A DNA stretch of 5,756 nt from a virus: the IMG/VR virus record IMGVR_UViG_3300045988_000096, positions 1 to 5,756 of that record; one strand, written 5' to 3'. The translations under genes and the position numbers were made by a program. Of this stretch, positions 1 to 5,756 are shown piece after piece. The notes beneath the pieces are model-generated. The model was not told the DNA's origin. It was given only the letters and a program-made list of their open reading frames with translations, and did not search any database. The stretch's first letter is position 1, and every line of letters starts with the position of its first letter.

Positions 1-119
1 CCTCCTTTCTTTCCATATTTGTGTGCAAATAGAAGGTTTCTGACAGTGGAGGCAGAGCATTCCTCCTTTACATTTCGCTGCCAGTCCCCTCATGTCAATT
101 TTACCAAAAAAAAAAAAAC
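1..119. repeat. Direct terminal repeat, copy 1 (identical to 5638..5756); assembly overlap of a circular genome
   Basis: Base-by-base comparison shows 1..119 equals 5638..5756, including the A13 tract (106..118 and 5743..5755). Position 120 continues with unique sequence. Implied unit length is 5,637 nt, within the Microviridae size range. Confidence 0.95.
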
Positions 120-146
120 GCAAGGTCAACTTTCGTCAACCTCACG
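106..146 (-). terminator. Rho-independent terminator on the minus-strand transcript, downstream of the 52-aa ORF
   Basis: The minus-strand RNA reads CGUGAGGUUGAC-GAAA-GUUGACCUUGCG (119..146). This is a 12-bp stem (8 Watson-Crick plus 4 G-U pairs) with a GNRA (GAAA) tetraloop, followed directly by U13 (plus-strand A13, 106..118). The wobble pairs become C-A mismatches on the opposite strand, so the structure works only for minus-sense transcripts. It starts 10 nt after the stop codon at 156..158. Confidence 0.8.
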
Positions 147-155
147 ATTTTTGGT

Positions 156-314
156 TTATCTTTCGTATTCTTTGAGTTTTTCACAGATTGCGTTTGTCCA
201 TTCGTCATCCATTTTGTACTCTTCTTTTATCTGCTCTCGGTCTTCGCTTCTCCATCCACCGTCGTATAGTGCTGCTGCGCAGTTTTCAACTTCTTCTTCA
301 TAGTAGCTTTTCAT
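156..314 (-). CDS. Hypothetical small acidic protein, 52 aa: MKSYYEEEVENCAAALYDGGWRSEDREQIKEEYKMDDEWTNAICEKLKEYER
   Basis: Hand translation, ATG at 314..312 and TAA at 158..156. AGGAGG (comp 326..321) lies 6 nt upstream of the ATG. A consensus promoter lies upstream and an intrinsic terminator 10 nt downstream. By hand count, 16 D/E versus 8 K/R. No family recognised. Not in the ORF track (below 60 aa). Confidence 0.7.
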   Translation of the reverse strand: MKSYYEEEVENCAAALYDGGWRSEDREQIKEEYKMDDEWTNAICEKLKEYER

Positions 315-333
315 GGTGTGCCTCCTAGTTTGT

Positions 334-384
334 GGTGTGCTCTTCTTACACCTTTATTATACACCTAAAACATGCACTTGTCAA
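334..384 (-). promoter_or_regulatory. Promoter P1 (perfect sigma-70/sigma-A consensus) plus downstream palindromic operator candidate
   Basis: Minus strand reads TTGACA (comp 384..379), a 17-nt spacer, then TATAAT (comp 361..356). Three nt later comes the inverted repeat GGTGT-N9-ACACC (334..352), then 7 nt, AGGAGG, 6 nt and the ATG of the 52-aa ORF. Confidence 0.8.
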
Positions 385-413
385 GCAGAACTTTGTCTAG
401 ATGGCCGTCAGGT

Positions 414-447
414 CGGCGCTGGTGCGCCGGATGAAAATGACGGCGCA
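414..447 (-). other. GC-rich three-segment element able to form two mutually exclusive hairpins
   Basis: On the plus strand, CGGCGC (414..419) pairs with GCGCCG (424..429) across a 4-nt loop. Alternatively, TGCGCCG (423..429) pairs with CGGCGCA (441..447) across an 11-nt loop. The middle segment is shared. No U-tract follows on either strand. Confidence 0.45.
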
Positions 448-501: not shown

Positions 502-1680
502 TTATATTTCATCTCTTCTTAATTTGGAGAACTTTTCTTGATTTTTCGTGTCGATGTTGTTATAATGTTCTTGCAGACTATAGCCGTGTTGTGCGAGCTG
601 AGCAAATAGAGCGTCGTTGGCGATTTTCCGTCGCTTTCTCTTTATTTCCTTGAGTTCGTCCGACTCGGCTTTTATTATTAGAGCTTCGTAATCCTTTTCT
701 GTTTCGGCGTTTAGTGGTTCGCTGTTGCTGTGTTCAAGATCAAAGAGCTTGTCGAAGTATGCTGGCGGTTTACATCTTTTTCCTTTACTCAGCTGGATAC
801 TGTCTTTTTGATATATCTCGTCTTTATGGTCTTCGTAGTATCTCCAGCCGATTGATGGTTTTGTGCTGATTCTGCTATCTTCTTCCTCGATACACATATC
901 GAGGAATTTTTCTTTTGCTTCGCCATATGCTTTCTTGGAACAGTATGCTGCTGTATATGCCATGTCGTTCCATTCTGCCACTCCGATAATTACGAAGCCT
1001 TTTCCCCATATCTGGTTGAGCCATGCACAGGTGTAGTATACTCTGCCTTTCTGTTTTTTATACACCTTCAGTTCTTTCGGGTCTATGTATAAGCTGTACA
1101 CGATCGCGTGATAATGCGGTCTGTGCGTTTTCGTGCCGTATTCTCCTCCAGCGTAGTACATGAGTTTATTTTTCATGCCTACTTTTTCATCATAGACTTG
1201 GTACATTCTTTCGTGATACTCTGTCCATCTTCTCAGCCTTTTCCAGAATGCCGTTAAATCATCATAGTCTAGTGTTAGGTTCGTTGTATACTCTCCGCTT
1301 GGAGCTTTCAGCACTCCGTTTTTGTCGATGCCTTTGCCTCTTTCGATGTTGATTGGAACGTGCTTGTTGTCGTACGTCAATGTTAAGAACCAAGCCTGAT
1401 CGTGATACGGTAATTCCATCTCCATTCGATTTGCCCAGCTCTTTCGTCTATCCAAAATGCATCCTTGGCAATGTTTACAAGGACATATTACAATTTCGCC
1501 GGTTTTGATTTTTGCTTTGACTTCTCGTTCTCTTCTGCGCTGCGTTGTTATGTCGTCAGCTGGCGCTGTGTTCGGCTTGTTCGACATTCCGTATTTGATA
1601 TAGCGTTCTAGTGAACTAAAAAAATCGTCTCCGTTTTTCTTCGCTCCGAAGATTCTAATGTTGGGTCTGCCACATGGCAT
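502..1680 (-). CDS. Replication initiation protein VP4 (HUH rolling-circle endonuclease, phiX174 gpA family), 392 aa
   Basis: Motif I is FLTLTY (aa 98-103). The HUH motif is RPHYHAIVY (H189-Y190-H191, nt 1108..1116). The two-tyrosine motif is AYTAAYCSKK (Y242, Y246), matching the YxxxY spacing of phiX174 A protein. The N-terminal MPCGRP and the cysteine cluster CPCKHCQGC (aa 66-74) are typical of Microviridae VP4. GGAGGTG lies 8 nt upstream of the ATG at 1680. Confidence 0.93.
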   Translation of the reverse strand: MPCGRPNIRIFGAKKNGDDFFSSLERYIKYGMSNKPNTAPADDITTQRRREREVKAKIKTGEIVICPCKHCQGCILDRRKSWANRMEMELPYHDQAWFLTLTYDNKHVPINIERGKGIDKNGVLKAPSGEYTTNLTLDYDDLTAFWKRLRRWTEYHERMYQVYDEKVGMKNKLMYYAGGEYGTKTHRPHYHAIVYSLYIDPKELKVYKKQKGRVYYTCAWLNQIWGKGFVIIGVAEWNDMAYTAAYCSKKAYGEAKEKFLDMCIEEEDSRISTKPSIGWRYYEDHKDEIYQKDSIQLSKGKRCKPPAYFDKLFDLEHSNSEPLNAETEKDYEALIIKAESDELKEIKRKRRKIANDALFAQLAQHGYSLQEHYNNIDTKNQEKFSKLRRDEI

Positions 1681-1829: not shown

Positions 1830-2006
1830 TTAACGCACTTCTTTCCCTGTTATTTTTTCGCTGTAGTATACTATCGCGTCCCGGATAATGTCGGATGTGT
1901 TTGCTTTCCAGTTCCGGTTTGTATACTCTTTCGTCAGGTTTTCCAGTGCATCGTTTTCCGCTTTGGTCAAGTTGATATTAAATCTCTTTGTGATCTGCGT
2001 TCTCAT
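1830..2006 (-). CDS. Ribbon-helix-helix (CopG/Arc/MetJ-like) DNA-binding protein, 58 aa: MRTQITKRFNINLTKAENDALENLTKEYTNRNWKANTSDIIRDAIVYYSEKITGKEVR
   Basis: Hand translation, ATG 2006..2004 and TAA 1832..1830, with AGGAGG (comp 2017..2012) 5 nt upstream. The sequence pattern fits an RHH fold: an N-terminal beta strand (KRFNINL), helix A (TKAENDALENLTKEY), and a helix B cap of the x-S/T-x-S-D/E-hydrophobic-I-R-D/E-A-I type (NTSDIIRDAIVYY). Not in the ORF track (below 60 aa). Confidence 0.7.
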   Translation of the reverse strand: MRTQITKRFNINLTKAENDALENLTKEYTNRNWKANTSDIIRDAIVYYSEKITGKEVR

Positions 2007-2024: not shown

Positions 2025-2075
2025 AGTGTGTGATTGGTACACTCATAATATACACCTCTTTTCTCCACTTGTCAA
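2025..2075 (-). promoter_or_regulatory. Promoter P2 (near consensus) plus palindromic operator candidate; paralogous to P1
   Basis: Minus strand reads TTGACA (comp 2075..2070), a 17-nt spacer, then TATATT (comp 2052..2047). Three nt later comes AGTGT-N9-ACACT (2025..2043), then 7 nt, AGGAGG, 5 nt and the ATG of the RHH gene. Spacing from -35 to SD is identical to P1. Confidence 0.75.
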
Positions 2076-3031: not shown

Positions 3032-4654
3032 TTAGATGGTATCAAGGCCTGGGATGCTGTAGATCGGCATTGCCCTTGTCCACGTCTGGTCGAAGTAGAA
3101 GTTGCAGATAAATTGGTGGTTGTTCTGGCTTTCTACCGCGATCGTTCTATCAATGTTCTGTCTTCCCTCTTTAATCCATTCGCTGGAGAGAGTCGGCAGA
3201 CTCGTGTATTTATCGGCATAGTGCCAAGCATCCAGTGTCTGCGCGTAGGTGCTGCGCATTTCGCCTGTGATCATGTTTGTCCGGTATCGGTAGTCTGCCC
3301 AAGCTTCCTGATAGCCGAATACTTCTTCGTCCTTTGCGTTGCCCTGTGCGTAGATTTCCTGATTGAGCACCGCTTGCTCACCGAGGTTTGCAAGCATCGG
3401 GTCATAGTAGGAAAAGCGTGTGCTGCGTGTCCACAGCCGGGACAGGCCCTGCTGATAGCTGTGATCAACTCGCACCGCTGCCAGACCGATGATGAAACCA
3501 TGTTCCGTTGCGCTGTATGTTGCCATGTTCCGGCTCATCGTGGTCATGGAGAATGCTGCAGTGTTGCCCTGTGGACTCGTCGCGTCTGTGCTGGACGTCT
3601 GAATGACCTGATTGATGTTGATAGGCAGTCTGTAGCCGCCGATGTATTCCGAGCGGTCAAGTCGTGCATCCGGACTCGTTACACCCCAAGCACCCTGTAA
3701 GATTTCCTTGTACCGTGTGCCGGTGCGTGCATCTCTTTCCATAATGTGTTGCACAGCGATGGCCTGTCTCAGTTCGTTGATGGTTGCGGCTGTTACGTTG
3801 CTCATGTCTGCGCCAAGTACTGGGTGTAAGCTTTCGTCTCTTTCGGTGTATACCTGTGCTGGTTTCGCTCCGCTTACATCGTCTCCGTTTACGCCTGCAA
3901 AGTAAGGGATGAAGTTTGTCATTATGCTTAGATCTGTGCTGTCCAGTTTTTCTTTGAGGCTTGCTGTGCCGTATCCATAAATCGGTGCCGCTCCTGTCAT
4001 CGGCAGCGTCACAGCCTCGCCTTTCTGAGGACTCGGCAGGCAGCTTGTGAAGTAGTCCTTGTACTTACAGACTTTGAGCGGTAGCCCTCCGGCTTCGGCG
4101 TCGGTCAGTGCTGTTCCTGCGTTGCTTCCTGCGGTCGTGGCGTCCGTCTTGCTCATCGTGACAGGCTGCTGTAAATTTTCGTCTCGAAACCATTCGTTCC
4201 AGATTTTGACATATGCCCGGAAAGGCAGGCTGTTCACCTGAAGGTTTTCTATGCCGGTCGGAATGCCGAAATAATCCGCCAGTGTGCCTACGTTCCAGCC
4301 GCCAGTTGGTGCGGTTGTTTTCGGAGTTGTGTATTCTACTTTTTCGGCCCAGAAGGTCGAGTCGTTCTGACCCATGAGGTTTTCGAAATGCTCCCACAGC
4401 AGCCGCGACGGTACGAAGAAGAAGTAAAAGTCACAGTAACAGTTATCCATGACAGGATACAGCGGTGTGCTCATGCGCATAAGTGCATTGAGGTCAATCT
4501 TTGCTGTGTCTGCCGGTAATACCTCGTCACAGTAGATCGGGACTAGATCGCCTTCGTTTATCGTGGTTAGCAGGCTATAATCTCGTTTGAATCTTGCGCG
4601 CGGCACGTTTGCATGAGGTACTTGGCTGTAATGCTGTTCAGCGTTTCGGTTCAT
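3032..4654 (-). CDS. Major capsid protein VP1 (Microviridae F-like jelly-roll capsid), 540 aa
   Basis: Size is typical for the family. The N-terminus HYSQVPHANVPRARFKRDYSLLTTINEGDLVPIYCDEVLPADT matches the conserved family pattern (RS-F-...-TT-...-G-L-PI...E-LPGDT). The start overlaps the VP3 stop in ATGA (4651..4654). Confidence 0.95.
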   Translation of the reverse strand: MNRNAEQHYSQVPHANVPRARFKRDYSLLTTINEGDLVPIYCDEVLPADTAKIDLNALMRMSTPLYPVMDNCYCDFYFFFVPSRLLWEHFENLMGQNDSTFWAEKVEYTTPKTTAPTGGWNVGTLADYFGIPTGIENLQVNSLPFRAYVKIWNEWFRDENLQQPVTMSKTDATTAGSNAGTALTDAEAGGLPLKVCKYKDYFTSCLPSPQKGEAVTLPMTGAAPIYGYGTASLKEKLDSTDLSIMTNFIPYFAGVNGDDVSGAKPAQVYTERDESLHPVLGADMSNVTAATINELRQAIAVQHIMERDARTGTRYKEILQGAWGVTSPDARLDRSEYIGGYRLPININQVIQTSSTDATSPQGNTAAFSMTTMSRNMATYSATEHGFIIGLAAVRVDHSYQQGLSRLWTRSTRFSYYDPMLANLGEQAVLNQEIYAQGNAKDEEVFGYQEAWADYRYRTNMITGEMRSTYAQTLDAWHYADKYTSLPTLSSEWIKEGRQNIDRTIAVESQNNHQFICNFYFDQTWTRAMPIYSIPGLDTI

Positions 4655-5404: not shown

Positions 5405-5524
5405 TTATAAACGGATGCCGCCGCGCGACGGCTTCGGATTGACGTTGATTTTTTTCGTCTTCTTTGCGGTATTGGTGAAGACTTTCTTATCCTTTTTCGG
5501 ATTGACCGGCATTCGATGTGCCAT
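5405..5524 (-). CDS. Small basic DNA-binding/packaging peptide (phiX174 J / gokushovirus VP8-like), 39 aa: MAHRMPVNPKKDKKVFTNTAKKTKKINVNPKPSRGGIRL
   Basis: Hand translation, ATG 5524..5522 and TAA 5407..5405. AAGGAGGAG lies upstream, and the ATG is 1 nt after the stop of the preceding ORF. The peptide is highly basic (K/R rich). The F-x-x-T-A core and C-terminal RGGIRL ending match what I recall from small Microviridae DNA-binding proteins. Not in the ORF track. Confidence 0.75.
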   Translation of the reverse strand: MAHRMPVNPKKDKKVFTNTAKKTKKINVNPKPSRGGIRL

Positions 5525-5525
5525 A

Positions 5526-5630
5526 TTACTCCTCCTTATCCAGTCCCATGGCGTGGTAAATCTTGTCCAGCATCGCAAGGATCTTCCTCAGCTGATTAAA
5601 AATCCCGCGGATGTCTTTCACAGTAATCAT
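5526..5630 (-). CDS. Hypothetical 34-aa peptide: MITVKDIRGIFNQLRKILAMLDKIYHAMGLDKEE
   Basis: Hand translation, ATG 5630..5628 and TAA 5528..5526, with AGGAGG (comp 5643..5638) 7 nt upstream. It is coupled to the next ORF (TAAtATG). It is predicted to be mostly one amphipathic helix, with no transmembrane segment and no recognised family. Confidence 0.5.
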   Translation of the reverse strand: MITVKDIRGIFNQLRKILAMLDKIYHAMGLDKEE

Positions 5631-5637
5631 GGCAACA

Positions 5638-5756
5638 CCTCCTTTCTTTCCATATTTGTGTGCAAATAGAAGGTTTCTGACAGTGGAGGCAGAGCATTCC
5701 TCCTTTACATTTCGCTGCCAGTCCCCTCATGTCAATTTTACCAAAAAAAAAAAAAC
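5638..5756. repeat. Direct terminal repeat, copy 2 (identical to 1..119)
   Basis: See copy 1. It contains the SD of the 34-aa ORF, candidate promoter P3 and the A13 tract. Confidence 0.95.
5685..5735 (-). promoter_or_regulatory. Candidate promoter P3 for the structural gene block (weak -10), with downstream palindrome; a second copy lies at 48..98
   Basis: Minus strand reads TTGACA (comp 5735..5730), a 17-nt spacer, then AAATGT (comp 5712..5707; only the A2 and T6 consensus positions match). Three nt later comes GGAGG-N9-CCTCC (5685..5703). This geometry matches P1 and P2. The T13 and AAAA just upstream of the -35 could act as an UP-like A/T tract. It is the only TTGACA between the terminator and the first structural-block ORF. 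Confidence 0.35.

Follow-up and report, generated by a model that had tools for sequence, protein, structure and literature searches.

The DNA considered here, called the window throughout, is the whole 5,756-nucleotide stretch of IMG/VR record IMGVR_UViG_3300045988_000096. It is a complete circular Microviridae genome of 5,637 nucleotides (positions 1-119 recur at 5638-5756), and the virus is a gokushovirus-like microvirus that holds all of its genes on the minus strand. Our subject is the segment at 106..384, between the Rep gene and the structural genes, where a single small gene sits behind its own promoter and in front of its own terminator. We call this gene ORF52, for the 52-residue open reading frame (ORF) it contains. 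Read along the coding strand, the segment and its immediate flanks are laid out as follows.

404..444, minus strand: GC-rich stem-loop lying after the Rep stop codon and before the promoter, forming the outer part of the conserved left flank
384..356, minus strand: promoter P1, with TTGACA at 384..379, a 17-nucleotide spacer and TATAAT at 361..356 (12 of 12 consensus positions)
347..384, minus strand: left conserved arm, from the promoter to about the predicted transcription start, common to genomes with other genes in this place
159..346, minus strand: exchangeable segment, comprising a 5' untranslated region (5'UTR), Shine-Dalgarno sequence and coding sequence specific to each gene carried
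326..321, minus strand: Shine-Dalgarno sequence AGGAGG, 6 nucleotides before the ATG, read directly from the letters
314..156, minus strand: ORF52, 52 amino acids, stop codon at 158..156
146..119, minus strand: terminator stem-loop CGUGAGGUUGAC-GAAA-GUUGACCUUGCG, 12-base-pair stem
118..106, minus strand: T13 tract of the terminator; a T-run of 9-16 is kept in all relatives
98..106, minus strand: TGGTAAAAT, a candidate promoter of the extended -10 type that abuts the T13 tract and, together with the terminator, makes up the right conserved arm

A first-pass annotation, made from the letters of the window alone, had described a perfect TTGACA-17-TATAAT promoter, an AGGAGG Shine-Dalgarno sequence, a 52-residue ORF with a net charge of -8 and a GAAA-loop terminator with a T13 tract. 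All are present, on the minus strand. Promoters of this kind with at most one mismatch occur twice in the window, where shuffling leads one to expect 0.03, and P1 is kept as TTGACAAGTGnAT..AGrTGTATAAT in 22 IMG/VR contigs and in the GenBank relatives. The terminator has a folding free energy of -20.3 kcal/mol (z = -4.4; none of 200 shuffles folds as well), and since its stem contains G-U pairs it forms only in minus-strand RNA. Terminator stems covary among the relatives, with compensatory changes in five of the ten consensus pairs, and in L008, L016 and L030 the stems are entirely different. The coding strand has no strong terminator besides the one at 146..106, which probably also serves as the end point of transcripts begun upstream at the RHH-Rep promoter. 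The annotation's picture of a self-contained unit therefore holds in that the gene has a promoter and a terminator of its own, but the terminator is probably shared rather than private.

The motif TGnTAnAAT follows the T-run directly in all relatives (as TGGTAAAAT, TGATAGAAT or TGATAAAAT), even where the sequence beyond it differs, and from this arrangement we think that transcription of the structural operon probably starts from an extended -10 promoter, for which the T-run would be the upstream A/T element. TGnTAnAAT persists even in relatives without TTGACA at 98..93. On the other side of the cassette, the stem-loop at 404..444 reads GCCGTC..GGCGC-ACCA-GCGCC..GACGGC. Relatives have a hairpin at the equivalent position built from different stem sequences, which suggests a structure that is itself conserved, perhaps a complementary-strand origin or a weak terminator for Rep.

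ORF52 itself (MKSYYEEEVENCAAALYDGGWRSEDREQIKEEYKMDDEWTNAICEKLKEYER; net charge -8) has close homologues in 19 clusters at 90% identity, nearly all of them on contigs of 5.5-6.0 kb. Across 11 pairs of alleles of the type found in the window (type A), the ratio of nonsynonymous to synonymous substitution rates (dN/dS) is 0.09-0.29, with dS up to about 2. ORF52 is a real coding gene under purifying selection, because of these ratios.

What happens at this position in other genomes is the heart of the matter. We took the corresponding region from GenBank relatives, from 14 IMG/VR loci found by protein search and from 22 IMG/VR contigs found by the promoter pattern alone. In GenBank the closest are genomes of gut gokushovirus-like phages from the faeces of pigs and humans, whose structural genes match those of the window at about 80% identity. 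Promoter, terminator and position are kept in more than 25 related microviruses, but what lies between, the 5'UTR and the ORF, gives way to small genes of unrelated sequence. At least eight unrelated ORF families, which we refer to as cargos, are found between the same promoter and terminator.

Cargo A: the protein of the window, named LYDGGWR here after its best-kept motif
Cargo B (L002, L030, L031): basic allelic variant of A, with the N- and C-terminal ends kept and the YDGGWR turn replaced
Cargo MTEIEKIKK... (L026, L043): 60 amino acids
Cargo MKMTIYEKEDL... (L027): 64 amino acids
Cargo MTLKSYRIEM... (L028, L047, L048): 53 amino acids
Cargo MKYVIDQNGNNIDYEAAVNLMD... (L034, L042): 60 amino acids, AcrIC5-like
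Cargo MKQWKFLAY... (L035, L046): 56 amino acids
Cargo MTNKQYFKLEK... (L036): 54 amino acids, with a second gene behind it
Long LYDGGWR cargos (L038, L041): 72-84 amino acids
L032 (positions 1-120 of the rotated contig): promoter joined to the final 13 codons of a type-A gene, then an intact terminator

In the rotated contig L036 the two small genes, of 54 and about 100 amino acids, lie at 55-560 before the usual terminator, and the second is related to the 64-residue cargo of L027.

The most telling comparison is with L047, which is 90.5% identical to the window over 5.4 kb (95% in VP1, the major capsid protein) and carries an unrelated cargo. Its promoter matches that of the window at 97% over the first 38 nucleotides, where similarity stops; the terminator region is 94% identical, and window positions 346..159 have no counterpart in L047 at all. 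Genomes that share the cargo of L047 present the mirror image: L047 and L028 are 94.8% identical in the slot against about 76% in the backbone, and L047 and L048 are 88.9% against about 63%. On a VP1 tree the cargo labels need 12 changes, where the minimum is 9 and the mean of shuffled labels 12.6, and type A alone needs at least four changes across well-supported branches. The junctions of exchange fall just after the -10 hexamer and at the stop codon. An intact ORF with a Shine-Dalgarno sequence is found in every relative but one, the exception being L032, whose cargo-less slot suggests that the cargo is dispensable if this metagenomic contig represents a viable genome. Judged from these alignments, then, the unit is a fixed socket whose content is dispensable and horizontally exchanged, because unrelated cargos sit on near-identical genomes, cargo labels are scattered over the VP1 tree and slots with the same cargo are more alike than their backbones.

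The first-pass annotation had likened the cassette to a phage moron, and the comparison among close relatives that it proposed bears the likeness out: the signals and the position persist and the gene is replaced, in one case in a genome 90.5% identical, or reduced to a remnant. It had also held that loss or disruption of the ORF with survival of the signals would count against a functional gene. Exactly that pattern is seen, but with dN/dS of 0.09-0.29 it speaks for dispensability and exchange, not for a non-coding segment. Where the annotation went astray was in taking the unit for an unexpected oddity of this genome; it is a fixed feature of the clade, whose members are gokushovirus-like microviruses of the gut.

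Morons are known from lambdoid and other tailed phages as autonomous insertions of promoter, gene and terminator (the concept of Hendrix and Juhala). The slot resembles them in consisting of one small gene with its own promoter and, at the level of sequence, its own terminator, placed between two core modules, and in that the core life cycle can do without the gene: some close relatives have it, others lack it or carry another instead. It differs in that the transcription signals are here the conserved part and the gene alone is swapped, and in that its home is a 5.6-kb single-stranded DNA (ssDNA) microvirus rather than a temperate double-stranded DNA phage. Expression from a prophage, a usual trait of morons, is not expected here. 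No integrase or other sign of lysogeny was seen in the 5.6-kb genome. Nor is this a gene cassette of the integron type, a candidate we rejected given the missing integrase, the lack of any attC-like repeat and junctions that lie in a promoter and a terminator.

One cargo belongs to a family of known function. The 60-residue protein beginning MKYVIDQNGNNIDYEAAVNLMD matches the Pfam family PF22147, AcrIC5, over the full length of the model (E 2.7e-26, 91.9 bits, cut-off 27), and it matches PDB entry 7yhr, "Anti-CRISPR protein Type I-C5", at E 1e-11. By both matches it is an unambiguous member of the AcrIC5 family. It forms five clusters, 73-100% identical, on contigs of 4.2-5.8 kb (four of them 5.65-5.8 kb), and it occupies the same slot in L034, L042 and L051-L053. 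Three contigs from three independent sequencing runs, with two distinct alleles, have the gene between Rep and the block encoding the 34-residue and 39-residue ORFs, VP5, VP3 and VP1; in all three the same promoter stands before the gene and the same terminator behind it. The other cargos have no annotation.

AcrIC5 is a validated inhibitor of type I-C CRISPR systems that blocks target-DNA binding and acts on the I-C systems of Pseudomonas and of the gut actinobacterium Eggerthella (PMC7913775). It is broad in range, with homologues in Firmicutes and Actinobacteria (PMC7913775), and highly acidic (bioRxiv 10.1101/2025.06.06.658234). Microviridae of the gut are known to be targeted by CRISPR (766 genomes; PMC8530359). 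Full-text searches found no paper linking microviruses with anti-CRISPR genes.

What, then, is ORF52? It is not a relative of AcrIC5, a candidate we rejected on an hhalign probability of 0.3%, no Pfam match at E<=1 and the absence of 7yhr from the Foldseek matches. AlphaFold2, given a 19-sequence alignment, predicts a three-helix bundle (helices 4-18, 23-32 and 37-51) with a mean pLDDT confidence of 95.6. A profile search of 1.8 billion representative proteins returned 326 clusters (50% identity) at E<=1e-3, and a word-seeded profile search extended the family, which we call LYDGGWR, to at least 1,024 clusters at 90% identity. As a consensus the family reads aAaaLYDGGWRaeDReqLieEY.L..eeAdaICe.L.eYe. 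ORF52 has the A..LYDGGWR..D motif, the hydrophobic core (I29, Y33, A42-I43-C44, L47) and the three helices spanning about 45 residues that mark the family; Y.GGWR is present in 181 of the 241 homologues retrieved. Members come as stand-alone proteins of 45-70 residues, as tandem duplications and as C-terminal domains of larger acidic proteins, whose N-terminal parts have no Pfam or PHROG annotation. Among 155 small members the median net charge is -10, making acidity a trait of the family.

No family covering the domain was found in Pfam, PHROGs, NCBIfam or PDB, and sequence searches with ORF52 gave no significant match. Foldseek against BFVD retrieved uncharacterised phage proteins (TM 0.81, probability 1.0); against PDB the best match was Ltp (4eqq; TMq 0.60, E 9.5, 13% identity), which is not significant. 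The profile and structure searches that the first-pass annotation had called for thus delivered a confident fold and a large unnamed family, but not a named one. A scan of GTDB prokaryote genomes, one per species, with the family pattern found no relative; a tblastn search with one family member drew a blank in plasmids, and its sole match in the GenBank phage collection was a microvirus. Full-text searches for the motif YDGGWR found no paper.

Not every LYDGGWR gene in a microvirus follows the plan of the window. A more distant microvirus, L003 (MG945868.1), encodes at 3610-3939 a 109-residue protein of two tandem LYDGGWR-type domains, located after VP1 and not after Rep. In L001 (54-621) and L009 (3302-3900) the LYDGGWR gene has no terminator behind it and overlaps the start of a 132-residue Peptidase_M15_3 gene of lysis type; here the promoter is rebuilt as TTGAAA-16/17-TATAAT, giving a two-gene version of the slot.

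The family meets AcrIC5 a second time in tailed phages. In L054 (6240-6884, P0288) and L056 (3833-4477), from two samples, a 214-residue gene starts 51 nucleotides after an AcrIC5 homologue. Its product joins an unannotated 160-residue N-terminal part to a C-terminal domain of LYDGGWR type (LYGSDWR; E 8.5e-11 in a hidden Markov model scan of the fetched loci). Another three or four genes downstream comes a small HTH_3 gene. Siphovirus-like contigs, about 40 kb long, also have stand-alone LYDGGWR genes. These are found in a stretch of small genes without annotation that separates the lysis genes from the region of helix-turn-helix (HTH) regulators and early genes; in L023-L025 they belong to a short block transcribed against its neighbours. 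The tailed phages L055 and L057 have AcrIC5 homologues in the same kind of place, beside small HTH_3 genes that are aca-like (anti-CRISPR-associated). Two links thus tie the LYDGGWR family to AcrIC5: in microviruses the two are allelic alternatives, and in tailed phages they are neighbours.

On balance we lean toward reading 106..384 as a conserved, exchangeable accessory slot and ORF52 as a candidate anti-CRISPR or anti-defence protein, because AcrIC5 holds the same slot in sister genomes and LYDGGWR-domain genes adjoin AcrIC5 in tailed phages. Taken separately, an anti-defence function for ORF52, argued by association, seems to us an evenly balanced proposition, and action against CRISPR specifically is doubtful. 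The first-pass annotation had offered its anti-defence guess by precedent only, pointing to acidic DNA mimics; the guess now has associative support from the AcrIC5 cargo and the AcrIC5 neighbour, whereas a likeness to Ocr or ArdA was not found.

How might such a slot work? Incoming ssDNA would be converted to the double-stranded replicative form, and host RNA polymerase would then transcribe the cargo strongly and early from the consensus sigma-70/sigmaA promoter. The cargo mRNA would be monocistronic, about 240 nucleotides long, and would end at the terminator, which would insulate the structural operon; transcription of the latter would restart at the adjacent extended -10 element. The promoter on the left, and the terminator fused to the structural-operon promoter on the right, would serve as two arms, and homologous recombination in them during co-infection could swap the cargo, that is, the 5'UTR, the Shine-Dalgarno sequence and one small ORF or occasionally two. 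Co-occurrence of the genomes that would have to meet is plausible because most of the relatives come from a single metagenome dataset. ORF52, for its part, most likely engages a host immune protein by way of the invariant YDGGWR turn and so blocks it.

A larger picture can be drawn from these pieces, and we put it forward tentatively: a one-gene anti-defence socket with recombination arms, LYDGGWR as a widespread anti-defence family, the roughly six other cargos as inhibitors too, and a ribbon-helix-helix (RHH) protein encoded elsewhere in the genome as an Aca-like repressor.

Several things weigh against an anti-defence role. Neither AcrIC5 nor any named family shows detectable homology to ORF52, so that the functional claim is guilt by association, which often fails. 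The known anti-CRISPR (Acr) protein is only one of about nine cargo families. The slot is cargo only, with no aca-type regulator inside it, the RHH gene lying 1.6 kb upstream behind a paralogous promoter. Variant B (L002, L030, L031) is neutral or basic, with a net charge of +1 to +2, and lacks YDGGWR, so acidity is not indispensable in the slot. The terminator probably serves upstream transcripts as well, and the sole cargo-less genome, L032, is a metagenomic contig.

The alternative that survives best, though we consider it unlikely, grants the slot and moves ORF52 outside immunity, as an accessory host-interaction protein active in superinfection exclusion, in competition between phages or in modulating host replication, the SOS response or ssDNA handling. 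The slot and its exchange fit this equally well, most cargos are unannotated, and one family member lies in a 52-kb element with genes for PcfK, PcfJ, LPD29 and the DNA polymerase III beta subunit. The best, if weak, fold match in PDB points the same way, since Ltp of phage TP-J34 is a superinfection-exclusion protein of three-helix repeats. Like ORF52, Ltp offers a three-helix, HTH-like module for protein binding; unlike it, Ltp is secreted, a lipoprotein built of tandem repeats, and ORF52 is a single-domain cytoplasmic protein with no signal peptide, lipobox or hydrophobic leader (its N terminus is MKSYYEEE). To this must be added that the match falls short of significance, that the only annotated cargo is an anti-CRISPR and a LYDGGWR gene adjoins AcrIC5, and that superinfection exclusion promises little obvious gain to a phage without an integrase or signs of lysogeny.

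A second alternative is a special form of the anti-defence reading, with ORF52 as a DNA mimic that blocks restriction-modification or other DNA-binding defences. We hold it improbable. Eight net negative charges in 52 residues, a family median of -10 and a sister cargo, AcrIC5, that is acidic and prevents binding of target DNA all recommend it. Against this, ORF52 resembles neither Ocr, ArdA nor any other known mimic in Pfam, PHROGs, NCBIfam or PDB, and a 52-residue three-helix bundle is small for a mimic unless it oligomerizes. Variant B retains the scaffold and is not acidic, and the best-conserved feature, the YDGGWR turn with its Trp and Arg, looks more like a specific protein-contact site than like an array of charges.

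A shade less probable still is a regulator of the phage itself, for instance a protein binding RNA polymerase or sigma that closes the -35-dependent early promoters in favour of the extended -10 structural promoter. The division of promoters suits the idea, as the two strongest, P1 and P2, are of the -35/-10 type and the element after the terminator is only TGnTAAAAT, and ORF52, small and acidic, sits exactly at the junction of early and late genes. But in near-identical genomes the gene gives way to unrelated proteins, to an Acr or to a remnant, which one would not expect of a core regulator, and the LYDGGWR family is widespread in unrelated tailed phages.

We regard a role in lysis as very improbable. 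Here the slot would hold a fast-evolving single-gene lysis function like those of ssRNA phages, ORF52 being one such gene. No lysis gene is recognised in the window genome, small, unrelated and rapidly replaced genes are typical of single-gene lysis, and a peptidase M15 gene lies directly behind the ORF52 homologue in L001 and L009. Yet ORF52 and most other cargos lack a hydrophobic segment, a consensus early promoter gives the wrong timing, one cargo is an AcrIC5 homologue and L032 has none, and the family is a common one among tailed phages already equipped with holin and endolysin genes. Replaceability and the Acr cargo led us to reject core regulator and lysis gene alike.

That the ORF is a non-functional passenger between signals important in themselves (one ending Rep transcripts, the other serving the structural operon as promoter or UP element) is barely credible: this is the only strong coding-strand terminator here and L032 retains the signals without the ORF, but dN/dS of 0.09-0.29, by which we rejected a non-coding spacer, a confident fold, more than 1,000 homologous clusters and an intact ORF with a Shine-Dalgarno sequence in all relatives but one say otherwise.

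Having named LYDGGWR as a candidate anti-defence family, we should say where the slot stands among systems already described. The nearest are acr-aca loci and early anti-defence genes marked by promoter motifs (PMC7913775; PMC11065993). In both, unrelated small acidic genes alternate at a fixed position behind a strong early promoter; one alternative in the slot is a bona fide Acr family, AcrIC5; and a small RHH DNA-binding protein stands behind a paralogous promoter, as a repressor of the Aca type would. Unlike them, the slot has no aca gene in its operon and is closed by an intrinsic terminator, and ORF52 has no homology to any validated Acr. AcrIC5 (PF22147; 7yhr) is similar to ORF52 in outline (60 against 52 residues, helical, charge -10 against -8), in its identical slot in sister microviruses and in its place beside a LYDGGWR-domain gene in tailed phages; the two share no sequence or profile similarity. 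Phage accessory hotspots (bioRxiv 10.1101/2023.04.06.535777) likewise hold variable, fast-evolving genes within conserved flanks, enriched in counter-defence and horizontally exchanged. The slot is minimal by comparison, usually a single gene, and has a promoter and a terminator for arms where the hotspots have conserved genes.

The rest of the genome is that of an ordinary gokushovirus-like phage. It also encodes a VP2 pilot protein, a VP3 scaffold and an ORF5-like protein, and the features that bear on the slot are these.

1680..502, minus strand: Rep/VP4
1830-2006, minus strand: gene for a 58-residue RHH-like protein upstream of Rep, with weak matches to CcdA and to repressors
2075..2047, minus strand: promoter P2 (TTGACAAGTGGAGAAAAGAGGTGTATATT), near-consensus, paralogous to P1 and preceding the RHH gene
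4654..3032, minus strand: major capsid protein VP1 (Phage_F, E 3e-164)
5526-5630, minus strand: 34-residue micro-ORF (MITVKDIRG...) that opens the structural operon, kept in relatives
5405-5524, minus strand: 39-residue basic J/VP8-like ORF (PHROG 10695), kept in relatives

The two micro-ORFs are tightly coupled at the start of the structural operon. Just 5' of the Shine-Dalgarno sequence of Rep, at 1704-1746, lies a perfect 16-base-pair inverted repeat, CACTGGGGGGAAATGT / ACATTTCCCCCCAGTG, with an 11-nucleotide loop; a T-tract is absent, and the repeat could serve as an origin or in translational control. P2 and the RHH gene are kept in all relatives. P1 and P2 have in common TTGACAAGTG and AGGTGTATA, plus a second GTGTA 13 nucleotides downstream, an element that by its sequence could be a shared operator. 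In both promoters it has the form GGTGTA-N7-GTGTA. By analogy with Aca proteins, the RHH protein behind P2 may repress both promoters. We offer this as a lead only.

Morons, acr loci and accessory hotspots are all known kinds. In the literature we searched, we found no Microviridae described as having an exchangeable single-gene slot that lies between promoter and terminator and can hold an Acr cargo. Microviruses are usually viewed as nearly accessory-free and genetically isolated, and where their limited accessory repertoires are listed, methyltransferases and lysis peptidases alone appear (PMC9239249). A swappable slot that bears an AcrIC5 homologue in some genomes shows that a phage of just 5.6 kb sets aside about 5% of its length for a counter-defence gene that can be exchanged. 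Such a slot is also a natural discovery device. Its eight or more families, of 50-85 residues, become short and easily synthesised candidate inhibitors of immunity, first among them the very widespread LYDGGWR domain, and its clean promoter and terminator are directly usable as parts for engineering small phage genomes. If our reading is true, anti-immunity genes would be swappable within a viral population by way of signals that double as recombination arms, and LYDGGWR, whose clusters number more than 1,000 and span microviruses, tailed phages and other mobile elements, would be a new anti-CRISPR or anti-defence family.

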